A stretch of 64,000 bases of DNA from Candidatus Levybacteria bacterium GW2011_GWA1_37_16 (GTDB lineage Bacteria; Patescibacteriota; Microgenomatia; Levybacterales; UBA12049): assembly GCA_943357985.1 (NCBI GenBank), contig CALRGR010000002.1:306-64305 (forward strand). The letters are read 5' to 3'. The notes under the pieces are model-generated. The model saw nothing but the letters and a program-made list of their open reading frames with translations. It ran no database searches and was not told the origin of the DNA. Both the position numbers and the translations under genes were made by a program. Below, in pieces: positions 6,646-53,642 of the stretch. How positions within the stretch are numbered: position 1 is the first letter of the stretch; the number at the start of each line of letters is the position of its first letter.

Positions 6646-8817
6646 AGCAGTTGTTGTTGGAGAGGGGACAGGAGCCGCGCCGCAACTGACAGTATTTTCT
6701 GTCCCTTTTACAAAATATTCATTTCTTCCAATGCAGTATTTTTGAACAATATTTGCAGGTGTGGCAATCTTCTCATCAGGATTTTTTATGAGAAGCATTG
6801 TCATAATCCTATTCCATATTGGGGTTGCTCCCGTAATTCCGGAAGCTAAGGCCTGACTCATGGGGCTGTTGTCATTATTTCCTACCCACGTGGCAACCAG
6901 ATATGAAGGAGTATACCCAATTGTCCAGTTATCTCTTTTGTTGTCAGATGTTCCGGTTTTAACGGAAACAGTATGGCCGGGAATATTAAGGATTGAATTT
7001 GGCCCAAACGCTTGTGCTCTGGCGCCTCTATCAGCCAGGATATTGGAAAGTATAAAGGCAACTCCCTGGTCAAGTACGTTTTTTGGTTTAAGTTCTTTTT
7101 TTTCAACAATATTTCCTTTTGGATCTGTAATCTCAAGAATTGGATTTACGTCTACTCTTTGTCCTGCATTTGCCAAAACTCCATAAACTTGGGCCATTTC
7201 TGTCATTTTGACTTCAGCTGCCCCGAGTGTTATTGAAAGACCATAATTTTCCGGATTATTCCATGTTGTTATCCCCATTTTTTTGGCTAAATCTATCATA
7301 TTTGCAACGCCTATTTTATCAATAGTCTTTACGGCGGGAATATTAAAAGAATTGGCAAGGGCAATTCTTAAAGAAACTCTCCCATGAAATTGACCATCGT
7401 AATTAACGGGTGAGTATGGAGCACCACCTGGATTAGGAAATGTAATAGGTGAGTCATCAATAATTGTTGCGGCTGTGTAGCCATTTGTAAGTGCAACGCT
7501 GTAAGTTACGGGCTTTATGGAAGAACCAGGCTGCCTTAGTGATGTTGTTAAATTCACAGCTCCTCCGTTTTGATCTGAATAATCTTTACTCCCAACCATA
7601 GCTAATATCTCGCCGGTTTTAGGATTTGTTATAAGAGCCGCACCATTTGAAATATTAAGACTTGAAGCTTTTTGAACTTCATCGGTTACTATATCCTGAG
7701 CTTTTTGCTGTAAGGATAGGTCTAGAGTGGTTGTAACTTTCAGTCCTCCTTTTTCAACCATTTCAAGTCCATATTTGCGTACTAATAGATCTTTTACGTA
7801 CATCACGAAATGAGGAGTTTGTATTGGAATTTGCGGCGTATTGAATTCCAGATTTTGGGAAAGAGCATCTTTTTCCTGATTTTTTGTTATGTATCCCAAT
7901 TCCCTCATTCTCCTTAAGACTTCTTTTTGTCTTTCTTGCCATGAATTGGGATAAAGTCCGTAAGGAGAATAAGTGGAGGGGGCTTTGGGGAGGCCTGCTA
8001 GAAAAGCACTTTGAGCCAGATTTAAATCTTTTACATCTTTTCCAAAATAGGTTTGCGCGCCGGCCTGCGCTCCCCAGGCTGTTCCTCCATATGGAACCTG
8101 ATTAAAATACATTTCTAAAATTTGACTTTTACTATAAATGCGCTCGGCCCAAAGTGCCAAGATTAGTTCCTTAACTTTCCTTTTTATGCTTCTCTCAGGA
8201 GTAAGTAGCGTTGATTTAATTAATTGCTGAGTTATTGTTGATCCGCCTTGAAGATGATTTCCCTGTAAATCTGAAATTGCAGCTCTTGTAATTGCCATTG
8301 CGTCAAATCCCGGATTTTTGTAGAAATTTTTATCTTCAATTGATATTGTTGCGTTTTGAAAATCTTTGGGAATAGAGGAAAGTGGAACAGATGTTCTATT
8401 CTGTGCGGCATAAATCTGGAAAAGAAGTTTCCCTTTTCTGTCAAAGATTTTTGTTGTTTGAGTACTCTGCGTGTTTGAAAGAATAACAGGATTAGGTAAG
8501 TCTTGTACAAAGATTAGTATTAGAAGAGGAGCGAAAATAAAAAGAAAGGCAAAGAAAGTCCCAAAGGTAAAGTATTTTATTTTTATGCCAATTGGAAGAG
8601 GAAAGATTTTGATTTCTTTATATTTTTTCTTTTTTTGAGAAACGTGCCATTTTGACTTTATTTTAAAGCTGTTTTTGACAACTTTTAATAAATAAATTAC
8701 AAAAAGATATACTTTTCTAAATAAATTATTTGTGAATTTTCCCAGAAGAAGTACAAAATCTCCAATGTAGATAAGAGTTTTTAATAGTAAGGCAATAACA
8801 TCAATTAAAAACAGCAT
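6637..8817 (-). CDS. Bifunctional class A penicillin-binding protein (PBP1a-like: GT51 transglycosylase plus transpeptidase)
   Basis: N-terminal TM helix; GT51 motifs (IEDKNFYKNPGFD...GGSTITQQL); transpeptidase with KTGT. An extra Lys-rich ~80-aa stretch at the N-terminus may not be real. Confidence 0.85.
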   Translation of the reverse strand: MLFLIDVIALLLKTLIYIGDFVLLLGKFTNNLFRKVYLFVIYLLKVVKNSFKIKSKWHVSQKKKKYKEIKIFPLPIGIKIKYFTFGTFFAFLFIFAPLLILIFVQDLPNPVILSNTQSTQTTKIFDRKGKLLFQIYAAQNRTSVPLSSIPKDFQNATISIEDKNFYKNPGFDAMAITRAAISDLQGNHLQGGSTITQQLIKSTLLTPERSIKRKVKELILALWAERIYSKSQILEMYFNQVPYGGTAWGAQAGAQTYFGKDVKDLNLAQSAFLAGLPKAPSTYSPYGLYPNSWQERQKEVLRRMRELGYITKNQEKDALSQNLEFNTPQIPIQTPHFVMYVKDLLVRKYGLEMVEKGGLKVTTTLDLSLQQKAQDIVTDEVQKASSLNISNGAALITNPKTGEILAMVGSKDYSDQNGGAVNLTTSLRQPGSSIKPVTYSVALTNGYTAATIIDDSPITFPNPGGAPYSPVNYDGQFHGRVSLRIALANSFNIPAVKTIDKIGVANMIDLAKKMGITTWNNPENYGLSITLGAAEVKMTEMAQVYGVLANAGQRVDVNPILEITDPKGNIVEKKELKPKNVLDQGVAFILSNILADRGARAQAFGPNSILNIPGHTVSVKTGTSDNKRDNWTIGYTPSYLVATWVGNNDNSPMSQALASGITGATPIWNRIMTMLLIKNPDEKIATPANIVQKYCIGRNEYFVKGTENTVSCGAAPVPSPTTTALR

Positions 8818-8908: not shown

Positions 8909-11077
8909 TTAAGGTGTTGGCGTTGGAGTAGCTTGATCCGGATGAGCGCAATTTACGCAGTATGTTCCGCCTCCCGGTTCTGTCACTAGGACTGATTCTT
9001 TTTCCTCAACATCTTCTGTCTGTCCAGCCTTTGCGGGTGTATTTGTTTTTTTATCAATGAAAATCTTTTGATTTCCAAGATCAGTCATCTTAGGCTCCGT
9101 TCCTTTTATGAAGTATTCAAATCTTGTAGGACAGCCGCTGTTGCCGGGTAAAAGTCCTGATATTGAGCAAATAGCTTTTTGAACAATATTAAATGATTTT
9201 TGAAACGGTTCAGCAGTCTTTTTTTCCAGCATGTGCGCCATTAAGACGTGCCAAATAGGAGCTGCCCCTGTAATTCCTGATACAAGTCCGCTCATAGGTT
9301 TATTGTCATTATTGCCTACCCAGACAACCACAACGTAAGAAGGCGTATATCCGATTGTCCAGTTATCTCTATAGTCATTTGTTGTTCCTGTTTTTACTGC
9401 AACAGGTAAATTGCCAATTCTAAGTGGAGAGTTTGTTCCAAATGCCATAGCGCGGGCGTCATTATCAGATAAGATGCTTGAAATTATATATGAAACGCCT
9501 TCCGGCAAAGCCTTTTTACCAAATATTGGAGAAGTCAAAGGTTTATATTCTTCCAAGGTTTTTCCCTTACTATCGGTAACTTTAATAATGGGATGTAAGT
9601 CAATTCTGTATCCTCCGTTTGCAAAGACGCCATAAGCTGTTGCCATATCAAGCATGGTAACCTCTCCCCCTCCTAGTGTTAGAGAAAGACCATAGCGGCT
9701 AGGATTTGTGAAAGTTGAAATTCCCATAGCCGAAGCAGTTGAAATCATAGACTGAGTGCCATTTAGCTTAAGCATTTTTACAGCCGGAATATTTATGGAG
9801 TTTGCAAGGGCAAATCTCATTTGGATTACTCCGCGAAATTTTCCATCATAATTTACAGGACAATATGGAGGCTCTCCAATATTCGGATAGCAAATCTTCT
9901 CATCTATAAAAGGCGTTGCTGCCGTGTAATTGTGTATCAAGCCCACAGCGTAGTTAATTGGTTTTATGGAGGAACCTGGCTGTCTGTATGCCAGGGCGAT
10001 ATTCACGTTTCCGTCAATTGTTGGAGAAAAGTAATCCGTACTCCCAACCATAGCTAATATCTCGCCTGTTTTGGGACTTGTTATTACCGCGGCACCATTT
10101 GAAGCGTTATATCTTTTAAGACTTGTAACTTCTGCCGAAACTGAAGCCTGCGCGTACTCTTGAAGTATTAAGTCAAGACTGGTTGTCACTTTAAGTCCGC
10201 CTTCCTCAACTACTTTTTGTCCATATTTTTTAACAAGTAAGTCTTTAACATATAAAACAAAATGTGGAGCTTTAATATTATTTGATAATTTTTGGAAGTT
10301 GAGTTTCTCTTTTAAAGCTTTTTCTTGTTCATCACGGGTTATGTATCCCTGCTCATACATATTTCTAATAACTTCCTCTTGTCTTTGTTTTGCCAATTCC
10401 GGATGTGCTCCAAATGGAGAGTAGGTGGTTGGTGCTTCTGGGAGTCCTGCAAGAAGTGCGCTTTCTGCAATATCTAGTTCTTGTACATGTTTTCCGAAAT
10501 ACATTTGAGATGCTGCTTCAACTCCATAGGCAGTTCCTCCATAGGGAACTTGATTTAGATACATTTCCAGAATCTTGCTTTTGGAGTAAACTGCTTCGGT
10601 TGCAAAAGAAAGTATCACTTCTTTTATTTTTCTTGTTATGGTTCGCTCCGGTGTAAGAAGGCTTGTTTTAACCAATTGTTGAGTTAGCGTTGAACCCCCT
10701 TGAAGCTGTTTTTTAAAAACAATTGAATAAGCCGCCCTTGCAATTCCTTTTATATCTATTGCCCCATGCTGATAAAAACTTCTGTCTTCTATAGCAATTG
10801 TTGCTTTCTGCATATATTTGGGTATTGAGTTCAAAGAAACAAAACTCTGATTTTTGTTGGCATAAATTGCGTAAAGAAGTTTTCCGTTTCTGTCATAAAT
10901 CTGAGTGGATTGGGGAATAGAGGAGCTTGCCAGCCTTGTAGGCGAAGGGATATCTTTAAAAATAAAAAGTAAAAAAGTAGCGGCAAATAGAATACCAAAA
11001 ACTGCAGGAATAGAATATCTTTTTTTTCTTATGAGCCTCTTAAAAACTTTTTTAAGCCCTTTTATATCTAATTTCAT
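8909..11077 (-). CDS. Second class A PBP (PBP1a paralog), in tandem with the preceding one
   Basis: Same architecture (IEDRSFYQHGAID...GGSTLTQQL...KTGT); paralogous to the 6637..8817 gene. Confidence 0.85.
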   Translation of the reverse strand: MKLDIKGLKKVFKRLIRKKRYSIPAVFGILFAATFLLFIFKDIPSPTRLASSSIPQSTQIYDRNGKLLYAIYANKNQSFVSLNSIPKYMQKATIAIEDRSFYQHGAIDIKGIARAAYSIVFKKQLQGGSTLTQQLVKTSLLTPERTITRKIKEVILSFATEAVYSKSKILEMYLNQVPYGGTAYGVEAASQMYFGKHVQELDIAESALLAGLPEAPTTYSPFGAHPELAKQRQEEVIRNMYEQGYITRDEQEKALKEKLNFQKLSNNIKAPHFVLYVKDLLVKKYGQKVVEEGGLKVTTSLDLILQEYAQASVSAEVTSLKRYNASNGAAVITSPKTGEILAMVGSTDYFSPTIDGNVNIALAYRQPGSSIKPINYAVGLIHNYTAATPFIDEKICYPNIGEPPYCPVNYDGKFRGVIQMRFALANSINIPAVKMLKLNGTQSMISTASAMGISTFTNPSRYGLSLTLGGGEVTMLDMATAYGVFANGGYRIDLHPIIKVTDSKGKTLEEYKPLTSPIFGKKALPEGVSYIISSILSDNDARAMAFGTNSPLRIGNLPVAVKTGTTNDYRDNWTIGYTPSYVVVVWVGNNDNKPMSGLVSGITGAAPIWHVLMAHMLEKKTAEPFQKSFNIVQKAICSISGLLPGNSGCPTRFEYFIKGTEPKMTDLGNQKIFIDKKTNTPAKAGQTEDVEEKESVLVTEPGGGTYCVNCAHPDQATPTPTP

Positions 11078-11164
11078 ACTTCGGCAAGCTCAGCACAAGT
11101 ATCCTAATGATATCATTGAACCATTCCTATGACAATGATACTGTAAGTTTTATATAATAAAACC

Positions 11165-12237: not shown

Positions 12238-13287
12238 ATGAAATTACCAAATATTAAAAATGCTCAAGTTTCCGGGAAAAAAGTCTTTCTTAGGGCAGAC
12301 TTGGATGTTCCGGTTGTCAATGAAAAAGTAATGGATGAGGCAAGGCTTAGAGCTTGGTTTCCGACTCTTCATTATCTTCTAAATAATAGGGCAAAGGTAA
12401 TTCTTGCCGGACATTTGGGAAGGCCAAAAGGAATAGCTAATAAAGAATTTAGTTTGGAGCCGGTTGCAAAATGGCTCGGAGTACAGACAAAGTTAAAAGC
12501 CAAGATGGCCGAGCTCGATGATTTTCCGGGATGGAAATTTGCAGATAACTTATTTTTGCTTGAAAACTTAAGATTTTATAAAGAGGAAGAGGATCCTTTG
12601 GTTAGTTCAGGACAAGTTTTTGCAAAGAGGTTGGCAGGCCTTGCCGATATTTACGTAAATGATGCTTTCGCCGTGTCTCATAGAAACCAGGCATCTGTCT
12701 CTGGTATTCCAAAATACTTGCCTCATTTTGCCGGATTTAGACTTGAAGAAGAAGTTAAAATTTTATCCGAGCTCATGAAAGATCCAAAAAGACCCTTGGT
12801 TGTCATAGTAGGGGGCGCAAAAATAGAAACAAAACTTCCTTTAATTGATAAAATGCATGATTTTGCAGACTATGTTTTGGTGGGAGGAAAACTTGTCACA
12901 GAAGCCACAACTCTTATGAAGCTTCAGCACGAAAAGCAGGATAAAATTCGCTCTGCGCTTTTAGTCTCTGAGATGCAGGATTCAGGTATGGATATTACTC
13001 CTGAGAGTACAGAAAACTTTCTGCAGATTATAAAACTTGCTAAAACCGTTGTTTGGAATGGCCCGGTAGGCAAAGTTGAAGATTCAAAGTTTTCTGAGCA
13101 GTCCAGAAGGCTAGCTAAGGGAATTATTAAAAGTGGTGCCTATACTGTTGTAGGTGGAGGAGATACTATCGCATTTTTAGATAAAGAAAAACTTCTTGAT
13201 AAATTTTCTTTTTATTCAATAGGTGGGGGAGCAATGCTTGCGTTTCTCTCCGGAGATAAGCTTCCAGGCCTCGAAGCCCTCAGTTAA
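12238..13287 (+). CDS. pgk: Phosphoglycerate kinase
   Basis: KKVFLRADLDVPV, a typical PGK N-terminus; 349 aa. Confidence 0.85.
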   Translation: MKLPNIKNAQVSGKKVFLRADLDVPVVNEKVMDEARLRAWFPTLHYLLNNRAKVILAGHLGRPKGIANKEFSLEPVAKWLGVQTKLKAKMAELDDFPGWKFADNLFLLENLRFYKEEEDPLVSSGQVFAKRLAGLADIYVNDAFAVSHRNQASVSGIPKYLPHFAGFRLEEEVKILSELMKDPKRPLVVIVGGAKIETKLPLIDKMHDFADYVLVGGKLVTEATTLMKLQHEKQDKIRSALLVSEMQDSGMDITPESTENFLQIIKLAKTVVWNGPVGKVEDSKFSEQSRRLAKGIIKSGAYTVVGGGDTIAFLDKEKLLDKFSFYSIGGGAMLAFLSGDKLPGLEALS

Positions 13288-16289: not shown

Positions 16290-16299
16290 ATTCTAGTTG

Positions 16300-17142
16300 C
16301 TAGCCACTAGTCGCTAGTTGCTTCAGTTCTGTCATTGCTTTTTCTGCTTCTTCTTTTGTCGGCGGTTTGCCATGCCATGTATAATCATTTTCCATAAAAC
16401 TTACTCCTTTGCCTGGGACAGTATTGGTCAGAATGAAAACCGGCTTATCAATTATCTTTTTGGCTTCTTCTACAGCCTCAATAAAAGCTTTGATATCATT
16501 TCCGTCAACTTCAACTACATGCCAATTAAAAGCTTCATACTTTTCTTTTAATGGTTCAAGCGGCATTATGTTTTCCGTATTTCCGTCAATTTGAATGTTA
16601 TTTCTATCTATTACATTGATGATGTTAACTTTATATTTGCCCGCAAACATTATTGCTTCCCATGTATTTCCTTCCTGATGTTCTCCGTCTGAGGTTATGC
16701 AATAAACTTGAAATTTCTTGCCATCCAATTTTGCAGCCAAGGCAATACCAATTGCTTGAGAAAGTCCCTCTCCTAGCGGTCCGGATGTTGTCTCAAGACC
16801 GGGTAGGGAAGCGGCATGGGGATGTCCCTGTAGCCTTGAGTTAATTTTTCGCAAGGTCTTTAGTTCCTCAATAGGAAAATATCCTGCAAGCGCCATTGTG
16901 GCATAGCGGACAGGGACAATATGGCCATTTGAAAGAATAAGTCTGTCTCTGTCTGGCATATCCGGATTTTTAGGATCGTGGTTTAGTATATGAAAGTAAA
17001 AAGCGGTAAAAATATCTGCCATCCCCAAAGGCCCTGCCGAGTGGCCGCTTCCTGCCTCAACAAGCATTTCAATAATAAGCTGCCTTATCTTATTTGCCTT
17101 AACTTCTAAATCTTTTAATTTTTCTTCGCTTAACTCTCCCAC
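16300..17142 (-). CDS. Transketolase, N-terminal (TPP-binding) subunit
   Basis: GSGHSAGPLGMADIFTAFYFHILNHDPKNP... is the TPP-binding motif of transketolase. Confidence 0.85.
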   Translation of the reverse strand: MGELSEEKLKDLEVKANKIRQLIIEMLVEAGSGHSAGPLGMADIFTAFYFHILNHDPKNPDMPDRDRLILSNGHIVPVRYATMALAGYFPIEELKTLRKINSRLQGHPHAASLPGLETTSGPLGEGLSQAIGIALAAKLDGKKFQVYCITSDGEHQEGNTWEAIMFAGKYKVNIINVIDRNNIQIDGNTENIMPLEPLKEKYEAFNWHVVEVDGNDIKAFIEAVEEAKKIIDKPVFILTNTVPGKGVSFMENDYTWHGKPPTKEEAEKAMTELKQLATSG

Positions 17143-25588: not shown

Positions 25589-28032
25589 CAAGTGGAAAAA
25601 TAAATATGAAACTAGACGGAATAAGAGAAAAAGTATTTTTAGACAGGTACGCCTTGAAAGGCAAAGACGGGGAGCTTTTGGAGCATGAACCCGAAGAAAT
25701 GTGGAAGAGAGTAGCAAGGGGAATCGCAAAGAAAGAGAAAAAAGAAGTCCGCAAGCAGTGGGAAGACAAATTCTACAGCATTATGGAGGACTTCAAATTT
25801 GTTCCAGGCGGAAGAATCCTCTCGGGTGCAGGAACAGATTATCAGGTAACTTACTTTAACTGTTTTGTAATTCCCTCACCTAAAGATTCAAGAGAAGGAA
25901 TTCTTGACTCTTTAAAGCAATTGGTTGAAATTCAATCCCGTTCAGGTGGAGTAGGACTTAATCTCTCATCGCTACGGCCAAATGGGGCAAGAGTTAAAAA
26001 GGTAAATGGAACTTCATCTGGTCCTGTAACTTGGGCAGGACTTTTCTCCTACGCAACGCATGATGTTGTGCAACAGGGCGGAACCCGAAGAGGAGCAACG
26101 ATGATCATGCTTTGGGATTGGCATCCGGATATTGAGGAATTCATAACAGTTAAGCAGGATTTATCAAAAATTAATGGAGCAAATCTTTCAGTTTGTGTTT
26201 CGGATGACTTTATGCAAGCTGTAAAAGATGATGCAGATTGGAATTTAGTCTACCCGGATTTAGACGACCCGCGCTACGATTCTAAATGGAATGGAAACTT
26301 GGATGAGTGGAAGAAGATGGGAGGAAAAGTAAAAGTTTACAAAACCATAAAAGCAAGACAACTCTGGGATTTAATTTGTGAGGCAGCTTGGAAGTCTGCA
26401 GAGCCAGGTCTTCATTTCTTAGAGCGAAGCAACAAAAGAAGCAATACTTGGTATTTTGAGAAATTGATTGCAACAAATCCTTGCGGGGAGCAGCCTCTTG
26501 GTGGATGGGCAGTCTGTAATCTTGGAGCAATGAATTTATCTGCTTATGTAAGGCCTGCCTCGCTTGACGGCGGTCAAGGCGGGGATGAAGTATTTGATTT
26601 TGAAAACTTTGGAAAAGATGTAAAAGTAGCCATGAGATTTATGGATAATGTCATTGATTCAACCTATTATTTCTTTCCGGAGAATGAAAAATGCGCAAAG
26701 GACATAAGAAGAACCGGACTTGGAATAATGGGAATAGCGGATGCGCTTATTAAAATGAAGATCCGTTACGGGAGCGAAGAATCACTTCCTATTATTAGAA
26801 AGATTTTTGAGACACTCAGAAATAATTCTTATGAGGCATCAACAGAAGTTGCATCGGAAAAAGGCTCTTTTCCTAAATTTAACAAAGAAAAGTACCTTAA
26901 GGGATATCACATAAAAGCATTGCCAAAGTCTTTGAGAGATAAAATTGCAAAAAATGGAATAAGAAACGCGGTTTTACTTACAATTGCTCCAACGGGAACA
27001 ACAAGTCTCTTGGCAGGGGTTTCCTCTGGAATTGAGCCGGTTTACGAATTCACTTTCATAAGAAGGGACAGAACAGGGGAACATATGATGTATCATCCAC
27101 TATTTGAGCAGTGGAAAGAAGCAAATCCTGGAGCAGAAAGACCGGAATATTTTGTTTCGGCAAATGACTTAACTCCTCTTGAGCATACGATAGTTCAGGC
27201 AGCAGCTCAAGAATATATTGATTCTTCTATTTCAAAAACAGTAAATGCTCCAAATTCTCACACAATTGATGATGTTAAAACTCTTTACATGTCGGCATAT
27301 GACTTAGGTCTTAAAGGAGTAACTTACATGAGGGACGGTTCAAGAGAAGGAGTATTATCCAGAGTTGGGGATGCTTCGGCAAGCTCAGCACAAGCTAAAA
27401 AAGAAGAAGTTGTACCAAAAAAAGTAGCCCAAAGTAGGCCAATGATTCTTGAAGGATACACTTATCAGCTTGAAACACCAGTTGGAAGAACCTACGTAAC
27501 AATCAATCATAATGAAAATAGAGAACCGCTTGAAGTCTTTATAACTATTGGAAAGTCTGGATCCGATGTTGAGGCAATGGCAAATGCGTTGGGACGTATG
27601 ATTTCGTTATCTCTTAGGCTTGAAAGTGATGTAGCCCCCCGCGAAAAGGTAAGAAAAATAGTTGCACAGCTTTCAGGAATTGGTGGAGCAAGAAGCGTTG
27701 GATTTGGAAAAGACAGAGTTAGATCACTTCCTGATGCTTTGGCCAAAGTTTTGGCAAATCATCACGGGTTTGCAGTAAACGGACACGTTGAAGACAAGCC
27801 GGGATTTGTTTTTAACGGACACCAAAACAATCAGCAAAAAGTAGAAGAGACACCGGTACTGGTTGAAAATGTTATAATTTCTCCTCTTCCAATGATTGAA
27901 CCCGTACATGAATCTTTTGCGGAGGCTTCTACAACAGGACTTTTTGATATTTGTCCTGAGTGTGGAAGTGGAACTTTTGCATACGAAGAAGGCTGCCGCA
28001 AATGTTATGGCTGCGGATACGCCGAATGCTAG
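25585..28032 (+). CDS. nrdJ: Adenosylcobalamin-dependent ribonucleotide reductase (class II, NrdJ) with a C-terminal Zn ribbon
   Basis: Class II RNR motifs (..NPCGEQPL.., ..TVNAP..) and a C-terminal CPECG...CYGCG motif; follows nrdR. Confidence 0.85.
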   Translation: MTSGKINMKLDGIREKVFLDRYALKGKDGELLEHEPEEMWKRVARGIAKKEKKEVRKQWEDKFYSIMEDFKFVPGGRILSGAGTDYQVTYFNCFVIPSPKDSREGILDSLKQLVEIQSRSGGVGLNLSSLRPNGARVKKVNGTSSGPVTWAGLFSYATHDVVQQGGTRRGATMIMLWDWHPDIEEFITVKQDLSKINGANLSVCVSDDFMQAVKDDADWNLVYPDLDDPRYDSKWNGNLDEWKKMGGKVKVYKTIKARQLWDLICEAAWKSAEPGLHFLERSNKRSNTWYFEKLIATNPCGEQPLGGWAVCNLGAMNLSAYVRPASLDGGQGGDEVFDFENFGKDVKVAMRFMDNVIDSTYYFFPENEKCAKDIRRTGLGIMGIADALIKMKIRYGSEESLPIIRKIFETLRNNSYEASTEVASEKGSFPKFNKEKYLKGYHIKALPKSLRDKIAKNGIRNAVLLTIAPTGTTSLLAGVSSGIEPVYEFTFIRRDRTGEHMMYHPLFEQWKEANPGAERPEYFVSANDLTPLEHTIVQAAAQEYIDSSISKTVNAPNSHTIDDVKTLYMSAYDLGLKGVTYMRDGSREGVLSRVGDASASSAQAKKEEVVPKKVAQSRPMILEGYTYQLETPVGRTYVTINHNENREPLEVFITIGKSGSDVEAMANALGRMISLSLRLESDVAPREKVRKIVAQLSGIGGARSVGFGKDRVRSLPDALAKVLANHHGFAVNGHVEDKPGFVFNGHQNNQQKVEETPVLVENVIISPLPMIEPVHESFAEASTTGLFDICPECGSGTFAYEEGCRKCYGCGYAEC

Positions 28033-36296: not shown

Positions 36297-36742
36297 AGAA
36301 AAGTGCTTGCACTGAACTGAGCGAAGCAATGAAATCGCACTTGCCCTTCGACGCGATTTTCGCATGTGCTCAAGTCTTGCTCAGGACACTTCATCTGTGC
36401 TTCGCCCAGCTGAAGTGTTGCGGGGCTGGGAGTTGGACCCAGCCTACAAGATTATGCAATCTGTTTCTCCGGTTACCCAGAGTGTCGGACTATATCATCA
36501 TCCTTGATAAATCTAGGATGTTCAGCGTATAGTCTCTACGGGGTCAATCTCGATTAAATCGGGACGACTTCCCTCGGTATTGCCCTTTGTCTAGGGTTTC
36601 ACCGATATAGCTAAATTCTCTTTTATACGTTGCCGTATAAAGGGCCCATTTTTGAGCCTCGTGTGCACCGTACACTACCCCGCGCGTTTGAACATTATAC
36701 AATTTGATTTAAGGCTCGTCAACCTGATAAAATAGGTGGCAA

Positions 36743-44241: not shown

Positions 44242-45402
44242 ATGAAAATTGCAATTGTTCACGATTACATAAAAGAGTACGGTGGCGCTGAACGAGTTCT
44301 GGAAGAGTTAATTAAGTTATATCCTAAAGCAACTGTATATACAACGGTATATTTGCCTAAATATTTAGGACCTCATAGGCAAAGGTTTAGTGAATACAAA
44401 ATTAGAACATCTTTCTTGCAATATCTTCCTTTTAAAGCCAAATTAATTTCGCCTTTTAGACTCTTATCTCCTTTAGCTTTTAAGCTTTTCAACTTCTCGG
44501 ATTTTGATTTAATAATTACATCTCAAACCGGTGCATACTTCCCAAATATCCTAGATAAGGAAAAAGCCGTGCTTATCTCTTACACCCACACGCCTCCAAG
44601 ATATCTATATGGGTTTGCAACAGCAAGGGAGTGGAAGAAAAACCCTGTTTTGAGATTTTTAGGAGAGCTTGCTAACCATTTCCTGCGTCTTTTAGATTAT
44701 AAAGCCGCACAAAATGTAGATTATTTTATAGCAAATTCAAAAAATGTAGCAGGAAGAATTAAAAAGTTCTATAGACGTGATGCTGTTGTAATTTATCCTC
44801 CGGTGGGTGTTCAGGAATCAGGAATAGGGAATAAGGAATCAAGAAAAAAAATTCATAATTCAAAATTCATAATTCCTAATTCATATTATCTGGCAGGAGG
44901 TAGGCTTGCACGGCCAAAACATATAGAGCTTATTGTTATGACTTTTACAAAATTAAGAATTCCTTTAAAAATCTTTGGTAAGGAATTTGCGGGATACGGT
45001 GATTCTCTTAGACGCATTGCCGGTAAAAACGTGGATTTTTTAGGTGAAATATCAGACGAGGAAAAGCTCGATCTAATGAAAAACGCCAAAGCATATATTT
45101 TTGCGGCAGAGGATGAGGATTTTGGGATTACTCCAGTTGAAGCAATGATGGTTGGCACTCCTGTTATAGCTTACAAGTCAGGGGGAGTTATAGAGACCGT
45201 AGTAGACCCTTCGGCAGGCTCAGGGCAAGTGGCGACAGGTGTATTTTTTGATAGGCTTTCCGCGGGACCGCTTACCATGGCACTTAATAAATTTAAAACA
45301 ATAGATTTTGATAAAAATGCTATCATAAAACATGCCAAAAAGTTTTCCGCGGAAAACTTTGATAGGGAATTGAAGAAGTTTATTTCTAAAGTGACTAAAT
45401 GA
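44242..45402 (+). CDS. Glycosyltransferase family 4 (GT-B, 'group 1')
   Basis: C-terminal EDFGITPVEAMMVGTPVIAYKSGG motif. Confidence 0.75.
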   Translation: MKIAIVHDYIKEYGGAERVLEELIKLYPKATVYTTVYLPKYLGPHRQRFSEYKIRTSFLQYLPFKAKLISPFRLLSPLAFKLFNFSDFDLIITSQTGAYFPNILDKEKAVLISYTHTPPRYLYGFATAREWKKNPVLRFLGELANHFLRLLDYKAAQNVDYFIANSKNVAGRIKKFYRRDAVVIYPPVGVQESGIGNKESRKKIHNSKFIIPNSYYLAGGRLARPKHIELIVMTFTKLRIPLKIFGKEFAGYGDSLRRIAGKNVDFLGEISDEEKLDLMKNAKAYIFAAEDEDFGITPVEAMMVGTPVIAYKSGGVIETVVDPSAGSGQVATGVFFDRLSAGPLTMALNKFKTIDFDKNAIIKHAKKFSAENFDRELKKFISKVTK

Positions 45403-45947
45403 GCAAAAATAAGGCTATAATTACCACGGGACTGGCAACATTTTTCTTTGGTTTTGGAGCAGGCGCGATCCTTAATTTATATCTGATTTCAATTAAATCT
45501 CCTCTAGTTGCTAATCTTCGCAGTAGTTTGAGCTTTAAGTCTTCAATCTATGGGGACGGAATTCTTCTTCCGATTGTGAATATGGTTATGGTTGCCTTTC
45601 TTTACAAAAAGAGAGAGTTTGTCCATAAATATAGCTTAAGGGCGGGTTTCCTTGGAGGATTTGTAATAACTGCATATTTTCATATAATTCAAGCTTTGCA
45701 AGGATTAGTGAATTGGACAATGCCAACGCCGTGGCATTGGAATATTTTGGGATTTTGGCATGCTTTGTATATGTTTTCTGTCGCAAGTTTAATAACGCTT
45801 TTTTTTGTAGTTTCTGTCCTGTCTTTTAGAAAACAGAAAAAACTTGATAAGGAGATTTACATTGTAATTGCCGGGATAATTTTCTTTCTCTTGCTTCTTA
45901 AATCTGATTATATGGACGTAAATCTTTTAAGCTTAATCCCGCGTTGA
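45399..45947 (+). CDS. Polytopic membrane protein (hypothetical)
   Basis: ORF track; several TM helices; ATGA overlap. Confidence 0.35.
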   Translation: MSKNKAIITTGLATFFFGFGAGAILNLYLISIKSPLVANLRSSLSFKSSIYGDGILLPIVNMVMVAFLYKKREFVHKYSLRAGFLGGFVITAYFHIIQALQGLVNWTMPTPWHWNILGFWHALYMFSVASLITLFFVVSVLSFRKQKKLDKEIYIVIAGIIFFLLLLKSDYMDVNLLSLIPR

Positions 45948-47215
45948 ATATGAGTTTTAAATTACCCACTATTTTTAAAAACAGTCAATTTATGTCTCTT
46001 TGGGGAAATCAAGTTCTTCTTCAAGTCTCTTTTAATATGTGCAACTATACGGCACTTCTTATTCTTGCAGACAGGACTCATTCTCCATTTGTACAAGCTC
46101 AGCTTTATGCAGCTTTAACTCTTCCTGCTTTTATCTTTGGAATAGTGGCTGGTCCCGTTGTTGATATGGTGGACAGAAAAAAATTAATGCTTATAACGGA
46201 TGCTTTACTAGCTTTTCTTTTTCTTTCTTATGCATTTGCGGGAGCAAATACAGTAATTATTATGGTAATTGCTTTTTTAACGTCTTCCGTTGCAAGATTT
46301 TTTATCCCGGCAGAAGCAGCGACAATTCCCCTTATGGTGTCAGAGGAGACATTAGAGCATGCTAATACTTTTTTTCTTTTTACTCTTATGGGTTCTGTGC
46401 TTTTGGGATATGCGATAGCAGGACCTATCATTCAGCTTTTTGGAGGGCTTGGAAGTTTTGGGGAAATAGTGCCTTTTATATTAAGCAGCGTTCTTCTTGT
46501 TGTTGGATTTATTCTTCGCTTAAGTCTTAAGAAAGTTGAGATGGTAAGACCTCAACTTCCAAATGGCACAATTTTTAAAAAAACCTTTCATTTATTTAAG
46601 CAGACTATTGGAGAAGTAAAAAGCCATGAAAACATTTATATTCCTATTACGCTTTTGGTTTTTGTTGAGTTTATCGTAGGAGCTATGAGTATTTTACTTT
46701 TAGAATTTGTGAGTAGATACTTAAGGCTTGAAATTACATCGGTTAGTTATGTTTTAATGGGGCCGCTTGTTGTAGGTCTAATTTTAGGAGTGTCTTTGCT
46801 ATCTAGAATTGAGAAGATAATGGGACATATAAAATCTATATTTGCAGCTTGTTTTGGCGTAGGATTAATATTGTTTATCTTTGGCTTGACACCGTTTATA
46901 GCTGGAGTTCTAATCACAAGAATTACTACTATTGCAGGTGCGTTTTTTCTGGGGATAGCTATAGTTGTTATTGCGGTGCAGGCAAGAACAATTTTACAGA
47001 TTAATGCAAAAGTTGAGATGCATGGAAGAATATTCTCATTTTTAGATATTATGATAGCATTTATTACGCCTGTTCCGGTTTTAATCCTAGGATTTTTGGC
47101 AGATAAAATTAGCATTTTGGTTATACTTTCTATGATTGGATTTTTAATAATCACAACTACGTTTCTAATTAGTAGGAGAAGAGGGGGATTATATGTCAGA
47201 TCTCCCGGAAGTTGA
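45944..47215 (+). CDS. MFS-type transporter
   Basis: ~12 TM helices; MFS-like loop motif (VVDMVDRKKLML). Confidence 0.55.
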   Translation: MNMSFKLPTIFKNSQFMSLWGNQVLLQVSFNMCNYTALLILADRTHSPFVQAQLYAALTLPAFIFGIVAGPVVDMVDRKKLMLITDALLAFLFLSYAFAGANTVIIMVIAFLTSSVARFFIPAEAATIPLMVSEETLEHANTFFLFTLMGSVLLGYAIAGPIIQLFGGLGSFGEIVPFILSSVLLVVGFILRLSLKKVEMVRPQLPNGTIFKKTFHLFKQTIGEVKSHENIYIPITLLVFVEFIVGAMSILLLEFVSRYLRLEITSVSYVLMGPLVVGLILGVSLLSRIEKIMGHIKSIFAACFGVGLILFIFGLTPFIAGVLITRITTIAGAFFLGIAIVVIAVQARTILQINAKVEMHGRIFSFLDIMIAFITPVPVLILGFLADKISILVILSMIGFLIITTTFLISRRRGGLYVRSPGS

Positions 47216-47263
47216 TTTTGCTGCATTTACAGGTAAGGGTAGATAATTTGCTATAATCCCCAC

Positions 47264-47410
47264 ATGCCAGAGTTACCAGAAGTAGACCCATTCGGCTTCG
47301 CTCAGGGCAAGAACATTGAGAATCGGCAGCCGCGGTACCTACTTTTGTCCCAATTGTCAGAAATAAATCTATTGTATTTTTATAACCCCTATGCTACTAT
47401 CCTATTCTAG
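47264..47410 (+). pseudogene. Decayed remnant of formamidopyrimidine-DNA glycosylase (Fpg/Nei): MPELPEVD...RYLLL retained, the rest lost
   Basis: Leaderless ATG 6 nt after a TATAAT at 47253-58. It encodes MPELPEVD (the Fpg N-terminus with catalytic Pro2/Glu3), then a repeat-derived linker, then RQPRYLLLSQL (compare the Fpg RAKYLLLEL motif), then a stop. Confidence 0.4.
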
Positions 47411-47513
47411 CACCCTCTTTTGCTGAAGCTTCAGTTGGCGAGGCCAAGTGCTAGTTTTTTATGCCCATTCGCAGTCGAAAACTGCTCAGGACATAATAAG
47501 TTATAATTGAATT

Positions 47514-48221
47514 ATGGCAAACGGCTATACAGAAAAGATTGTAATGTCCATTGGGGGCTCCCTTGTTGTTCCCGACGGAGGAATTGATACAGATTTCCTT
47601 TCAAGACTTAATAAATTTATCCGTGAACATCTGGCTAAAAATCCCCACCGCCAGTTTTTTTTGGTTATAGGAGGAGGTTCAATTGCCCGTAACTACCGTG
47701 ATGCAGGCAGGGATGTTATAGGTCATGAGCTAAACCGTGATGATTTGGACTGGCTTGGAATTCATGCAACAAAATTAAACGCGCATTTAGTCCGCACCAT
47801 TTTTAGAGATATTGCACATCCATATGTTATTAAGCATTACGAAATTATAAGAAAGGCAACAGAGCCTGTTGTTGTTGCCGCAGGATGGAAGCCGGGTTGG
47901 TCAACTGACTATTGCGCTGCTCTTTTATGTGAGGATTATGGAATAAAATCAATGATAAATCTTTCAAATGTTGATAAAGTTTATGACAAAGATCCTAAGC
48001 AATTTGAAGATGCAAAGCCGATGGACAAGATATCTTGGTTAGAGTTCAGGAAAATAGTTGGAGATGAATGGAAGCCCGGAATGAATGTGCCTTTTGATCC
48101 TATTGCCGCACAAAAATCAGAAGAATTAGAACTTAAAGTTGCAGTTTTGAATGGAAATAACTTTGAAAATGTTGCTAAATATATAGCTGGTGAAAATTTT
48201 GTGGGAACTGTGATAAAGTAG
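47514..48221 (+). CDS. pyrH: UMP kinase (amino-acid kinase family)
   Basis: KIVMSIGGSLV...LVIGGGSIARNY...VVVAAGW pattern. Confidence 0.7.
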   Translation: MANGYTEKIVMSIGGSLVVPDGGIDTDFLSRLNKFIREHLAKNPHRQFFLVIGGGSIARNYRDAGRDVIGHELNRDDLDWLGIHATKLNAHLVRTIFRDIAHPYVIKHYEIIRKATEPVVVAAGWKPGWSTDYCAALLCEDYGIKSMINLSNVDKVYDKDPKQFEDAKPMDKISWLEFRKIVGDEWKPGMNVPFDPIAAQKSEELELKVAVLNGNNFENVAKYIAGENFVGTVIK

Positions 48222-50621: not shown

Positions 50622-50693
50622 ATAATGATATAATTATAGCAGTTTTACTAAGCAACTAGCCACTAGTAGCTAGAAACTAGTCGCTGCATTTCT

Positions 50694-51866: not shown

Positions 51867-53642
51867 ATGACGTTTAAAAATTTATCCTTATATCTTGAAA
51901 AACTTGATAATACTTCATCCCGTCTTGCTTTGATAGACATACTTTCAGACCTATTCAAAAGTTCTTCAAAGGCAGAAATTTCCATGATTTGCTACTTGGT
52001 TCAAGGGAGAATTGCTCCATTTTTTAAGCCTGTTGAGATTGGAATGGCAGAAAAAACAGTAGCCCAGTCTATTGCCATTTCCTACGGTAGTTCGAAAGAT
52101 GAGGTTTTAAAACTTTATGGAAAACTTGGGGACATGGGACTAGTTGCTTCGCAACTTAATTCAAAATTCAAAGTTCAGAATTCAAAATTAACAGTAGCAC
52201 AAGTTTTTGAAATTTTAACTCAAATTGCAGGTACAAATGGGGAGGGGACAGTGGAGAAGAGGCTAAAACTTCTCTCTGACTTATTAAAGAAACTCGACTC
52301 AATCTCGGCAAAATATCTTGTTAGAATCCCTCTCGGAAATTTGCGTTTGGGAATTGGCGATCCCACAATTTTAGAAGGTCTTTCTGTGGCAAAATTTAAT
52401 GATAGGAGCAAGAAAAAGATATTGGAGGGGGCATATAACAGGACTTCCGATTTGGGGCTAATTGCGCAGATTTTATGGGAAAAGGGACTGCCGGCTGTTG
52501 AAAAGCTTGAGGTAAAAGTCGGATATCCAATTAGGTCTGAACTTTGCGAAAGGCTTCCGACCCCTCAAAAAGCAATTGAAAAGATGGGAACCGTTGACGT
52601 GCAGTATAAATATGATGGTTTTAGGGTTCAAATCCACAAAGACGGAGACAATGTTTCTATGTTTTCCAGAAATCTTGAAAATATGACTCATATGTTCCCT
52701 GAGCTTATTGAGGGAACACTAAAGCAAGTAAAAGCAAAAACTGCGATTTTAGATTCGGAAGCTCTTGCATACAGCCCTGAGTCTGAAGAATTTTTGCCTT
52801 TTCAGGAAACAACAAAAAGAAGAAGAAAGCACGGAATTGAGGAAATGGCTGCAAAACTTCCTCTTAAAGCATTTGTTTTTGACATTTTATATAAAGACGG
52901 AAAATCTTTAATAGATAGCCCATTGACGGAGCGCATTAAAGCTTTAAAAAGCACGATTGAAGAGGATGGAACGCTTATTCCGACAATTACTCAGACAATT
53001 TCAGACCCCAAAGAGTTGGGAATTATGTTGGAAGATGCAATTTCCAAAGGTTTGGAAGGAGTTGTTATTAAGAAACTGGATAGTAAATATGAAGCTGGAG
53101 GACGTAATTTTAATTGGGTAAAGCTTAAAAGGCATTCGGCTGGAGAATTGCACGACACTATTGATTGCGTAATTTTGGGATATATTTTTGGAAAAGGTAA
53201 GAGGGCGGATTTTGGAGCCGGAGCGCTTTTGGTTGGTGTTTATGATAGTAAAAAAGATGAATTTGTTACTGTTTCAAGAATTGGAACAGGCCTTACGGAT
53301 GATGAATGGCGCGAAATTCACAAAAGAGCGGACAAAATAAAAGTTGATCATAAACCTGCGCGTGTCAGCTCGCTTATTACGCCTTCTGTTTGGATTAGAC
53401 CGGAGATTGTAATTGAAGTATTAGCGGATGAAATAACCCGTTCCCCAATTCACACGGCCGGTCGTTCGACTCTGAGGGATGAGCCCTCAGGCTCAGACTC
53501 GAAGAGCAAGACCGAAACAGAGCCCGGATATGCTTTGCGTTTTCCAAGGCTTGTCTCTTTTAGAGATAAAGATAAGAAAGCAGAAGACGCAACATCTGTT
53601 AAAGAACTCGCCGAGATGTTTTTCCAGCAGTATAAAAAGTAA
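51867..53642 (+). CDS. ATP-dependent DNA ligase
   Basis: Adenylation motif I VQYKYDGFR (KxDG), OB-fold region, N-terminal DNA-binding domain. Confidence 0.85.
   Translation: MTFKNLSLYLEKLDNTSSRLALIDILSDLFKSSSKAEISMICYLVQGRIAPFFKPVEIGMAEKTVAQSIAISYGSSKDEVLKLYGKLGDMGLVASQLNSKFKVQNSKLTVAQVFEILTQIAGTNGEGTVEKRLKLLSDLLKKLDSISAKYLVRIPLGNLRLGIGDPTILEGLSVAKFNDRSKKKILEGAYNRTSDLGLIAQILWEKGLPAVEKLEVKVGYPIRSELCERLPTPQKAIEKMGTVDVQYKYDGFRVQIHKDGDNVSMFSRNLENMTHMFPELIEGTLKQVKAKTAILDSEALAYSPESEEFLPFQETTKRRRKHGIEEMAAKLPLKAFVFDILYKDGKSLIDSPLTERIKALKSTIEEDGTLIPTITQTISDPKELGIMLEDAISKGLEGVVIKKLDSKYEAGGRNFNWVKLKRHSAGELHDTIDCVILGYIFGKGKRADFGAGALLVGVYDSKKDEFVTVSRIGTGLTDDEWREIHKRADKIKVDHKPARVSSLITPSVWIRPEIVIEVLADEITRSPIHTAGRSTLRDEPSGSDSKSKTETEPGYALRFPRLVSFRDKDKKAEDATSVKELAEMFFQQYKK

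Follow-up and report, generated by a model that had tools for sequence, protein, structure and literature searches.

The question raised by this locus is what occupies the 298 nt that separate the gene for an MFS transporter (45944-47215) from that for a pyrH-like UMP kinase (47514-48221) in a Levybacteria genome. A sequence-only reading of the 64,000-nt stretch analysed here (henceforth the window) had recognized the start of a gene for formamidopyrimidine-DNA glycosylase (fpg; MutM) in this gap, saw it interrupted by a short repeat, and concluded that gene decay was in progress. Following comparison with related loci (designated by L numbers), positions 47193-47366 very probably represent a composite scar left by deletions, without function, within the variable MFS-pyrH slot. 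The basis for this is homology at both ends, synteny, contiguity with an intact orthologue, a junction shared with other lineages, and identical independent assemblies. The features of the region are listed in Table 1.

Table 1. Features of the MFS-pyrH interval, in window coordinates.
Feature	Position	Strand	Basis
MFS transporter gene	45944-47215	+	Pfam MFS_1
Shine-Dalgarno-like GGAGAAGAGGGGGA before stub 1, within the 3' end of the MFS gene	47175-47188	+	Sequence; position as in L016/L017
fpg start stub 1, ATGTCAGATCTCCCGGAAGTTGAT (MSDLPEVD)	47193-47216	+	Positional orthology to the L016/L017 fpg start
Alpha/beta-hydrolase 3' remnant, last 9 codons and stop (FAAFTGKGR*)	47217-47246	+	Homology to hydrolase 3' ends of relatives
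Extended -10 promoter box TGCTATAAT (predicted function)	47249-47257	+	6 nt before ATG; kept before intact fpg of relatives
fpg start stub 2, MPELPEV(D)	47264-47287	+	Alignment to L040; N-terminal motif
Repeat copy A, CCATTCGGCTTCGCTCAGGGCAAG, at the deletion junction	47288-47311	+	Pattern scan
fpg 3' stub, TLRIGSRGTYFCPNCQK and TAA; second half of zinc finger	47313-47366	+	tblastn; L040 alignment
Terminator-like hairpin, CTAGCAC...GTGCTAG and T6	47407-47460	+	Predicted fold, -19.7 kcal/mol
53-nt insertion after the ancestral pyrH ATG (47461-47463)	47461-47513	+	Comparison with leaders of relatives
Repeat copy B, with internal hairpin	47464-47493	+	Related to copy A
pyrH-like UMP kinase gene, amino-acid kinase family; downstream syntenic anchor	47514-48221	+	PF00696, E 2.3e-24

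Judged by pyrH, MFS and the neighbouring genes, the window belongs to a Levybacteria (Patescibacteria/CPR) genome, and orthologues of pyrH were 64-89% identical across all related loci. The gene order kept among relatives is GT4 - hyp182 - (MFS) - (variable gene) - fpg - (variable ORF) - pyrH - recF - Nnr, and the comparison of syntenic regions that the sequence-only reading had proposed placed an intact fpg where the window carries the scar. Twelve related Levybacteria loci contain an intact fpg (280-291 aa) directly or shortly upstream of pyrH. The gene lies close upstream of pyrH in L003, L004, L005, L010, L011, L016, L035, L037, L039 and L040; in L017, L018 and L028, it is located downstream of MFS. 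These intact genes match PF01149, PF06831 and PF06827 (precomputed Pfam), their products are 78-80% identical pairwise within the MFS-bearing clade, and the protein database holds 1166 Levybacteria Fpg homologues with E<=1e-90. The MFS-pyrH slot itself is strongly rearranged among relatives.

The ATG at 47264 opens an ORF of 48 codons (47264-47410) that begins MPELPEVD, as the sequence-only reading had stated. The residues Met-Pro-Glu-Leu-Pro-Glu-Val, with Pro2 as the nucleophile, are those with which Fpg starts, and MPELPEVET forms the N-terminus of 114 of 120 Levybacteria Fpg homologues. Six-frame translation of the window contains the pattern M[PS][ED]LPEV[ED] at two places; over 300 shuffles, its frequency was 0.0 per window. 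In line with the synteny of the relatives, this identified a true fpg start (stub 2), of which codons 1-7 are native and codon 8 (GAC) is probably already repeat-derived.

A TATAAT placed 6 nt ahead of this ATG had also been reported correctly, one position off in its coordinates (given as 47253-47258, actually 47252-47257); the preceding TGC completes an extended -10 box. TGnTATAAT or TATAAT at N6 from the ATG is likewise kept ahead of the intact fpg of L035, L039, L040, L030 and L011. Within the window, TATAAT-N5-8-ATG precedes nine ORFs of at least 60 aa, compared to 0.38 in shuffled sequence, an indication that the genome makes frequent use of leaderless mRNAs; the box before stub 2 would thus be the genome's normal leaderless-type start, seemingly intact. 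Examples of the nine sites are those at 11153, 21963, 34028, 42548, 47502 and 55017. A consensus promoter/terminator scan called neither the extended -10 box nor the terminator hairpin of Table 1, the latter because its loop is too long.

At the other end of the scar, the sequence-only reading had taken RQPRYLLLSQL, read in the 48-codon frame, for the internal RAKYLLLEL block of Fpg, about 45 residues into the enzyme. It proved to be an out-of-frame reading of the Fpg C-terminus (TLRIGSRGTYFCPNCQK*), i.e., the last 17 codons and the stop, which include ..GAATCGGCAGCCGCGG.. and lie in the +1 frame relative to stub 2; about 257 codons are therefore missing, not about 40. Stub 2 occupies frame 2 and the 3' stub frame 0, and translation of the 48-codon ORF therefore passes through the 3' stub in the wrong frame. 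Across the 64-kb window, this 3' stub was the top tblastn match of the relatives' Fpg (E 0.001-0.003), and the Fpg C-terminal motif occurred once in the six-frame translation and 0.0 times per window over 300 shuffles. Its identity was 40/48 to the end of the L037 fpg and 31/48 to that of L028. A 3-codon gap that had been supposed within this stub was dropped after alignment with L040.

The tblastn search with intact Fpg, which had been recommended along with the syntenic comparison, matched both the N-terminal and the C-terminal stub. With E. coli Fpg and the Fpg proteins of six relatives as queries, no Fpg-like sequence was detected in the 64-kb window outside these two stubs; the E. coli query by itself gave a single match, the 8-residue N-terminus at E 6.4, and an intact gene is absent from the window. 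Around 25 of some 280 codons survive, and nothing is left of the catalytic beta-sandwich past Pro2/Glu3, of the H2TH motif or of the first half of the zinc finger. Thus, codons 9-265 being absent, no ORF of about 270-290 aa unites the PF01149 beta-sandwich with the PF06831 H2TH, and the sole remnant of the CxxC...CxxC zinc finger (PF06827) is its second CxxC (CPNC), out of frame with the start. With approximately 257 of 280 codons gone, neither the 48-codon nor the 17-codon ORF can yield a glycosylase.

Stubs as short as 8 and 17 codons, and an E value of 6.4 for the N-terminus with the E. coli query, might also be expected from a chance similarity in an AT-rich spacer or from an assembly chimera. 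We give this explanation next to no credence, as the motifs appeared 0 times in 300 shuffles, the stubs sit at the exact syntenic position, and one flank is 91% identical at the nucleotide level to an intact orthologue in L040. Further, Logan assemblies of two other runs (L001 and L002) contain exactly the gap sequence of the window, and such agreement between independent assemblies makes an artefact unlikely. The shuffles, the L040 alignment and the junction shared with L031/L032 (see below) together refute it.

The L040 locus, whose pyrH is 83% identical to that of the window, carries GATATAAT-N6-ATG and then an intact 281-aa fpg, followed by a 28-nt spacer, the terminator hairpin and a repeat-bearing pyrH leader, all as in the window. 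Positions 47239-47283 of the window aligned with L040 2158-2202 at 35 of 45 nt (78%), from the promoter into codon 7 of the intact gene, and positions 47317-47414 with L040 2979-3076 at 89 of 98 nt (91%), from the interior of the intact gene through its stop codon into the terminator. Between the two aligned blocks, L040 has 772 nt (codons 9-265) and the window has the repeat alone. On this alignment, stub 2 and the 3' stub are the two ends of one fpg gene; synteny and contiguity with L040 make both position and flanks orthologous, in agreement with descent of the scar from an fpg gene.

The upstream part of the scar, consisting of a second start stub (MSDLPEVD, 47193-47216) and a hydrolase 3' stub (47217-47246), had not been described in the sequence-only reading. 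Stub 1 shares 23 nt with the 3' end of the MFS gene and has Ser in place of Pro2. In L016/L017, the real fpg start overlaps the MFS end at the position of stub 1, and the Shine-Dalgarno sequence of that intact, MFS-overlapping gene matches the position of GGAGAAGAGGGGGA in the window. Degenerate forms of stub 1 are present in L028 (MSGLPDVL) and L029 (MLELPEIE).

Joined in frame to stub 1 is FAAFTGKGR*, and the sequence from 47217 up to the TATAAT shows homology, as DNA and as peptide, to the region in relatives where an alpha/beta-hydrolase gene ends and adjoins the fpg promoter. The hydrolase 3' ends compared were those of L030 (..LAALAGRGR*), L031 (..RFVRTGR*), L035 and L039 (..LAAFARVGR*, continuing in L039 as TTTGTTATAATCCGCTCATG). 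A hydrolase gene lies between MFS and the fpg position in L029, L030, L031/32, L035 and L039, and the homology to its 3' end indicates that the window has also lost this gene; the remnant is too short to be detected by tblastn. An assignment of FAAFTGKGR to the middle of Fpg (GPEP..DF) had been considered and was rejected in favour of the hydrolase homology.

Downstream of the 3' stub, the stem and T-run of the terminator-like hairpin are kept in L016 and L031-L040, with 96% conservation of the hairpin. A palindromic insert in its loop, GCTGAAGCTTCAG (containing AAGCTT; 47415-47446), is common to the window and L031-L034, and absent from L016, L037, L038 and L040. No spacer separates the T-run from the pyrH ATG in L031 and L035-L039 (TTTTTTATGGC). 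An insert of 43-66 nt behind the old ATG, between duplicated TTATG sequences, is present in the window, L016, L032, L033 and L040. In the window, L016, L033 and L040, it consists of a repeat copy whose internal hairpin varies, together with a TATAAT and an ATG that are both new; the copy in L032 is shorter and has no TATAAT. The insertion in the window carries copy B, the related copy that the sequence-only reading had noticed near 47470, together with a new TATAAT (47502-47507) and the ATG at 47514, and the pyrH start appears to have been displaced (47461-47516). A short dead-end transcript running from the predicted promoter before stub 2 to the hairpin is plausible.

The scar was also observed in other lineages. 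In L031/L032, whose MFS is 68% (aa) and whose pyrH is 89% identical to those of the window, the order is hydrolase end, TGTTATAAT, start stub (MPEL..), two tandem repeat units, 3' stub, terminator and pyrH. Here, the stub-repeat-stub junction aligned collinearly with that of the window, and the transition from repeat to 3' stub is the same, into ..ALKIGS..RGSYFCDNCQK*. The stub ORF is in frame over 42 codons in L031 and is broken by one extra C in L032, while L033/34 retain the start stub and the repeat only, with neither fpg nor the 3' stub. The presence of one junction in different lineages implies that the scar is old or was exchanged between lineages; as read from these alignments, it is older than the species or has moved between lineages. 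This, along with the stub and repeat in L028, overturned the notion of a decay in progress.

Retention of stub, repeat and stub as a functional unit, be it as a micropeptide or leaderless mini-ORF, or as a short transcript from promoter to terminator with an insulating or regulatory effect on pyrH, would account for the intact promoter-like TGCTATAAT-N6-ATG, for the conservation of the terminator hairpin (96%), and for the single in-frame 42-codon ORF that start stub, repeats and 3' stub form in L031 (...RGSYFCDNCQK*). It would also fit the differences between the 3' stubs of the window and L031, which are mostly synonymous (6 of 8 differing codons, in a sample of 11 codons); this excess is unexpected for long-dead DNA and counts against the explanation that we prefer. 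However, neither the window (+1) nor L032 (extra C) keeps the frame, L033/34 are without the 3' stub, and L035, L037, L039 and L040 carry the full gene instead. Moreover, the peptide sequences differ among lineages and an Rfam search of the scar region returned nothing relevant, so that we regard a retained function as very improbable.

The repeat at the junction has a consensus of about GAYCC-TTCGGCAAGCTCAGGRCAAG, read as ..PSASSGQ.., and is GC-rich and 17-24 nt long; where it has an internal hairpin, it reaches up to 41 nt. Seven copies, all on the + strand, are present in the window, where the pattern scan gave 8 overlapping matches compared to 1.6 expected. Copy A contains TTCGGCTTCGCTCAGGGCAAG (47291-47311), which had rightly been recognized as a repeat-derived stretch following the start. 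Other copies are coding (45206-45229, 12593-12616 and 27371-27394), giving an ..S-x-S-S-G-Q.. pattern, or intergenic (11076-11099 and 36346-36388). The three coding copies share one reading frame, seen as ..DPSAGSGQV.. in GT4, ..DPLVSSGQV.. in a PGK-like ORF and ..DASASSAQA.. in an 815-aa ORF. The GT4 insert is absent from the orthologues in L003-L006, L011, L031-34 and L039, present in L014, L028 and L037, and expanded in L015/L016.

That the repeat does enter fpg follows from its 17-nt core, TTCGGCTTCGCTCAGGG, which is found as an identical in-frame insert at codon 37 of the intact gene in L005, and from GSGQ inserts near residue 152 in several other intact Levybacteria Fpg proteins. It follows the start stub in L028, L031/32 and L033/34 and is located at the deletion junction in every scar-bearing lineage. 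Among intact Fpg homologues, inserts were found at about residues 37, 84 and 152 only, and none at about residue 9 or 263, where they would have supported a recombination between two copies. No relative was found to have copies at both deletion end-points, so that a repeat-mediated mechanism is no more than a supposition. The internal fpg deletion with the repeat exactly at its junction, which the sequence-only reading had proposed, was thus borne out; the repeat as its cause comes down to association, since L028 has stub and repeat beside an intact gene.

L028, the nearest relative (MFS 92% aa), carries stub 1, stub 2 with the repeat, and then an intact 281-aa fpg. Over stubs and repeat it is 90% identical to the window (69 nt). 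After the repeat come AACACTAAA, corresponding to the first bases of the 3' stub, and 20-odd nt resembling an MFS 3' end; 29 nt separate stub 2 and repeat from the intact gene, and the contig ends 81 nt past this fpg. No Fpg in the protein database was closer than 81% identity to that of L028. In L016, an orphan 3' stub, 33/36 nt identical to that of the window, lies approximately 290 nt downstream of an intact fpg.

These two loci are in keeping with another history, namely a recent loss from an L028-like ancestor in which the stubs were already dead or orphan sequences around an intact fpg, and the whole gene between them was deleted; the two stubs would then not be the termini of the gene lost last. 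The low identity of the window's 3' stub to the 3' end of the L028 gene (31/48) would suit it as well. The earlier view of stub 2 and repeat as a mere pseudo-start and of the 3' stub as an unrelated orphan, which had been drawn from L028 and L016, was overturned by L040 and L031 and is kept as this rival history. We hold it to be unlikely: the window and L031/L032 pass collinearly from repeat to 3' stub, the intact L040 gene aligns without interruption to the 3' stub and its flank, and the AACACTAAA retained in L028 after the repeat fits an insertion into a pre-existing scar. Further, 31/48 to L028 compared to 40/48 to L037 and 91% to L040 makes it less likely that an L028-type gene was deleted recently. 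The intact gene seems to lie inside the scar in L028, and a simple vertical history with a single deletion needs an extra event in that lineage, either re-insertion or recombination with another lineage.

The history that we favour, an old internal deletion, would start from an ancestor with an alpha/beta-hydrolase gene and a 280-aa fpg at the locus, the latter with its own leaderless-type start (TGnTATAAT-N6-ATG). A first deletion would have removed the hydrolase gene, joining the older 8-codon stub 1, which overlaps the MFS end, to the last 10 hydrolase codons. In a second, codons 9 to about 265 of fpg (some 772 nt) would have been lost, leaving the promoter, 7-8 start codons, a 24-nt repeat copy and an out-of-frame 3' end of 17 codons plus stop. 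The order of the two events is what the arrangement suggests, and the repeat may have taken part, either because two inserted copies recombined or because it filled a break during repair. The promoter may still fire, in which case the transcript would end at the hairpin at 47407-47460.

With respect to known systems, the scar resembles Fpg/MutM (PF01149, PF06831 and PF06827) in MPELPEV with the Pro2 nucleophile and Glu3, in a C-terminus (...GRGTYFCPNCQK*) that retains the second CxxC of the zinc finger, and in a locus and flanks as in the intact 280-291-aa orthologues. It differs in lacking the catalytic domain, the H2TH motif and the first CxxC, and in having its pieces in different frames. 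It is a relic by descent, a pseudogene remnant of a known family and not a working member.

In Rickettsia, split and decayed genes reflect reductive genome evolution with repeat-associated gene deletions. Similar to those scars, terminal fragments remain here with a repeat at the junction, and intact, partly deleted and fully deleted states occur among related genomes. However, the repeat in the window is only 17-24 nt, the junction is common to lineages about 30% apart in neighbouring proteins, and the slot also gains genes in relatives (hydrolase, amidohydrolase, ORFs of 148-464 aa). Like Rickettsia palindromic elements (RPEs) and intragenic MITEs, the repeat has dispersed copies, some of them in frame inside conserved genes (GT4, PGK-like ORF) that it does not destroy and absent from orthologues; it is also found in the Fpg of L005 and other Levybacteria, and in intergenic sequence. 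RPEs are palindromic elements of about 100-150 bp that encode a conserved peptide (PMC10969869). In contrast, the 17-24-nt element lacks the length (about 50-400 bp), the terminal inverted repeats and any clear target-site duplication of RPEs and MITEs; no inverted termini were seen in its copies, and a possible TTATG duplication was seen at the pyrH copy alone. We would only tentatively, and as a rather doubtful proposal, consider it an undescribed ultra-short insertion-prone Levybacteria element that enters genes in frame, inserts beside start codons, where it brings or creates new TATAAT-ATG starts (as at pyrH), and marks or perhaps drives deletions such as that of fpg. The conserved first 24 nt of fpg would in that case be an anchor at which recombination repeatedly adds cargo genes to the slot or removes them.

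Fpg removes 8-oxoguanine and Fapy lesions, and most Levybacteria retain it. In lineages without fpg at this locus (the window genome and L031-L034), the rate of G:C to T:A mutation may be raised, unless another glycosylase compensates. A literature search on CPR with formamidopyrimidine or glycosylase loss yielded nothing specific. The locus offers a natural series of states, i.e., intact, hydrolase-interrupted, scar, and scar with an intact gene inside (L028), which is useful for studying gene gain and loss in streamlined CPR genomes, and annotators should not call the 48-codon ORF a gene. The scar is a new instance of a known feature type, a commonplace though well-supported gene loss, and its modest interest resides mainly in the plastic MFS-pyrH slot and the ultra-short repeat tolerated in frame.

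Several other observations were made at related loci and elsewhere in the window. In L014 (2040-2140), the fpg ORF is without its last 17 codons or so, the part that survives in the window, and runs in frame into pyrH (..CGGIIKRNLN-MANGYTEK..); it also has long repeat-like inserts near residues 80-120. Cargo regions flank fpg in L016 (3736-6500), L035 (3536-4930), L039 (5885-6610), L030 (2736-3182) and L040 (1232-2161). This cargo varies, including a 2.4-kb ORF pair, ORFs of 464, 241 and 148 aa, and an amidohydrolase replacing the alpha/beta-hydrolase, and the 8-codon fpg start forms a direct repeat at several of its boundaries. In the window, a pair of 31-nt inverted repeats (CTAGTTGCTAGCCACTAGTCGCTAGTTGCTT, 90% complementary) is located at 16293-16323 and 50650-50680, 34 kb apart. 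Two adjacent segments of about 1.3 kb each (6857-8130 and 9291-10582; spacing 2452 nt) are 71-75% identical and probably represent tandem paralogous genes. Finally, a gene for an ATP-dependent DNA ligase (PF04675/PF01068/PF04679; gene table of the source contig) is found at about 51867-53642, 4 kb downstream of the scar, and adjoins a Fic-domain gene.
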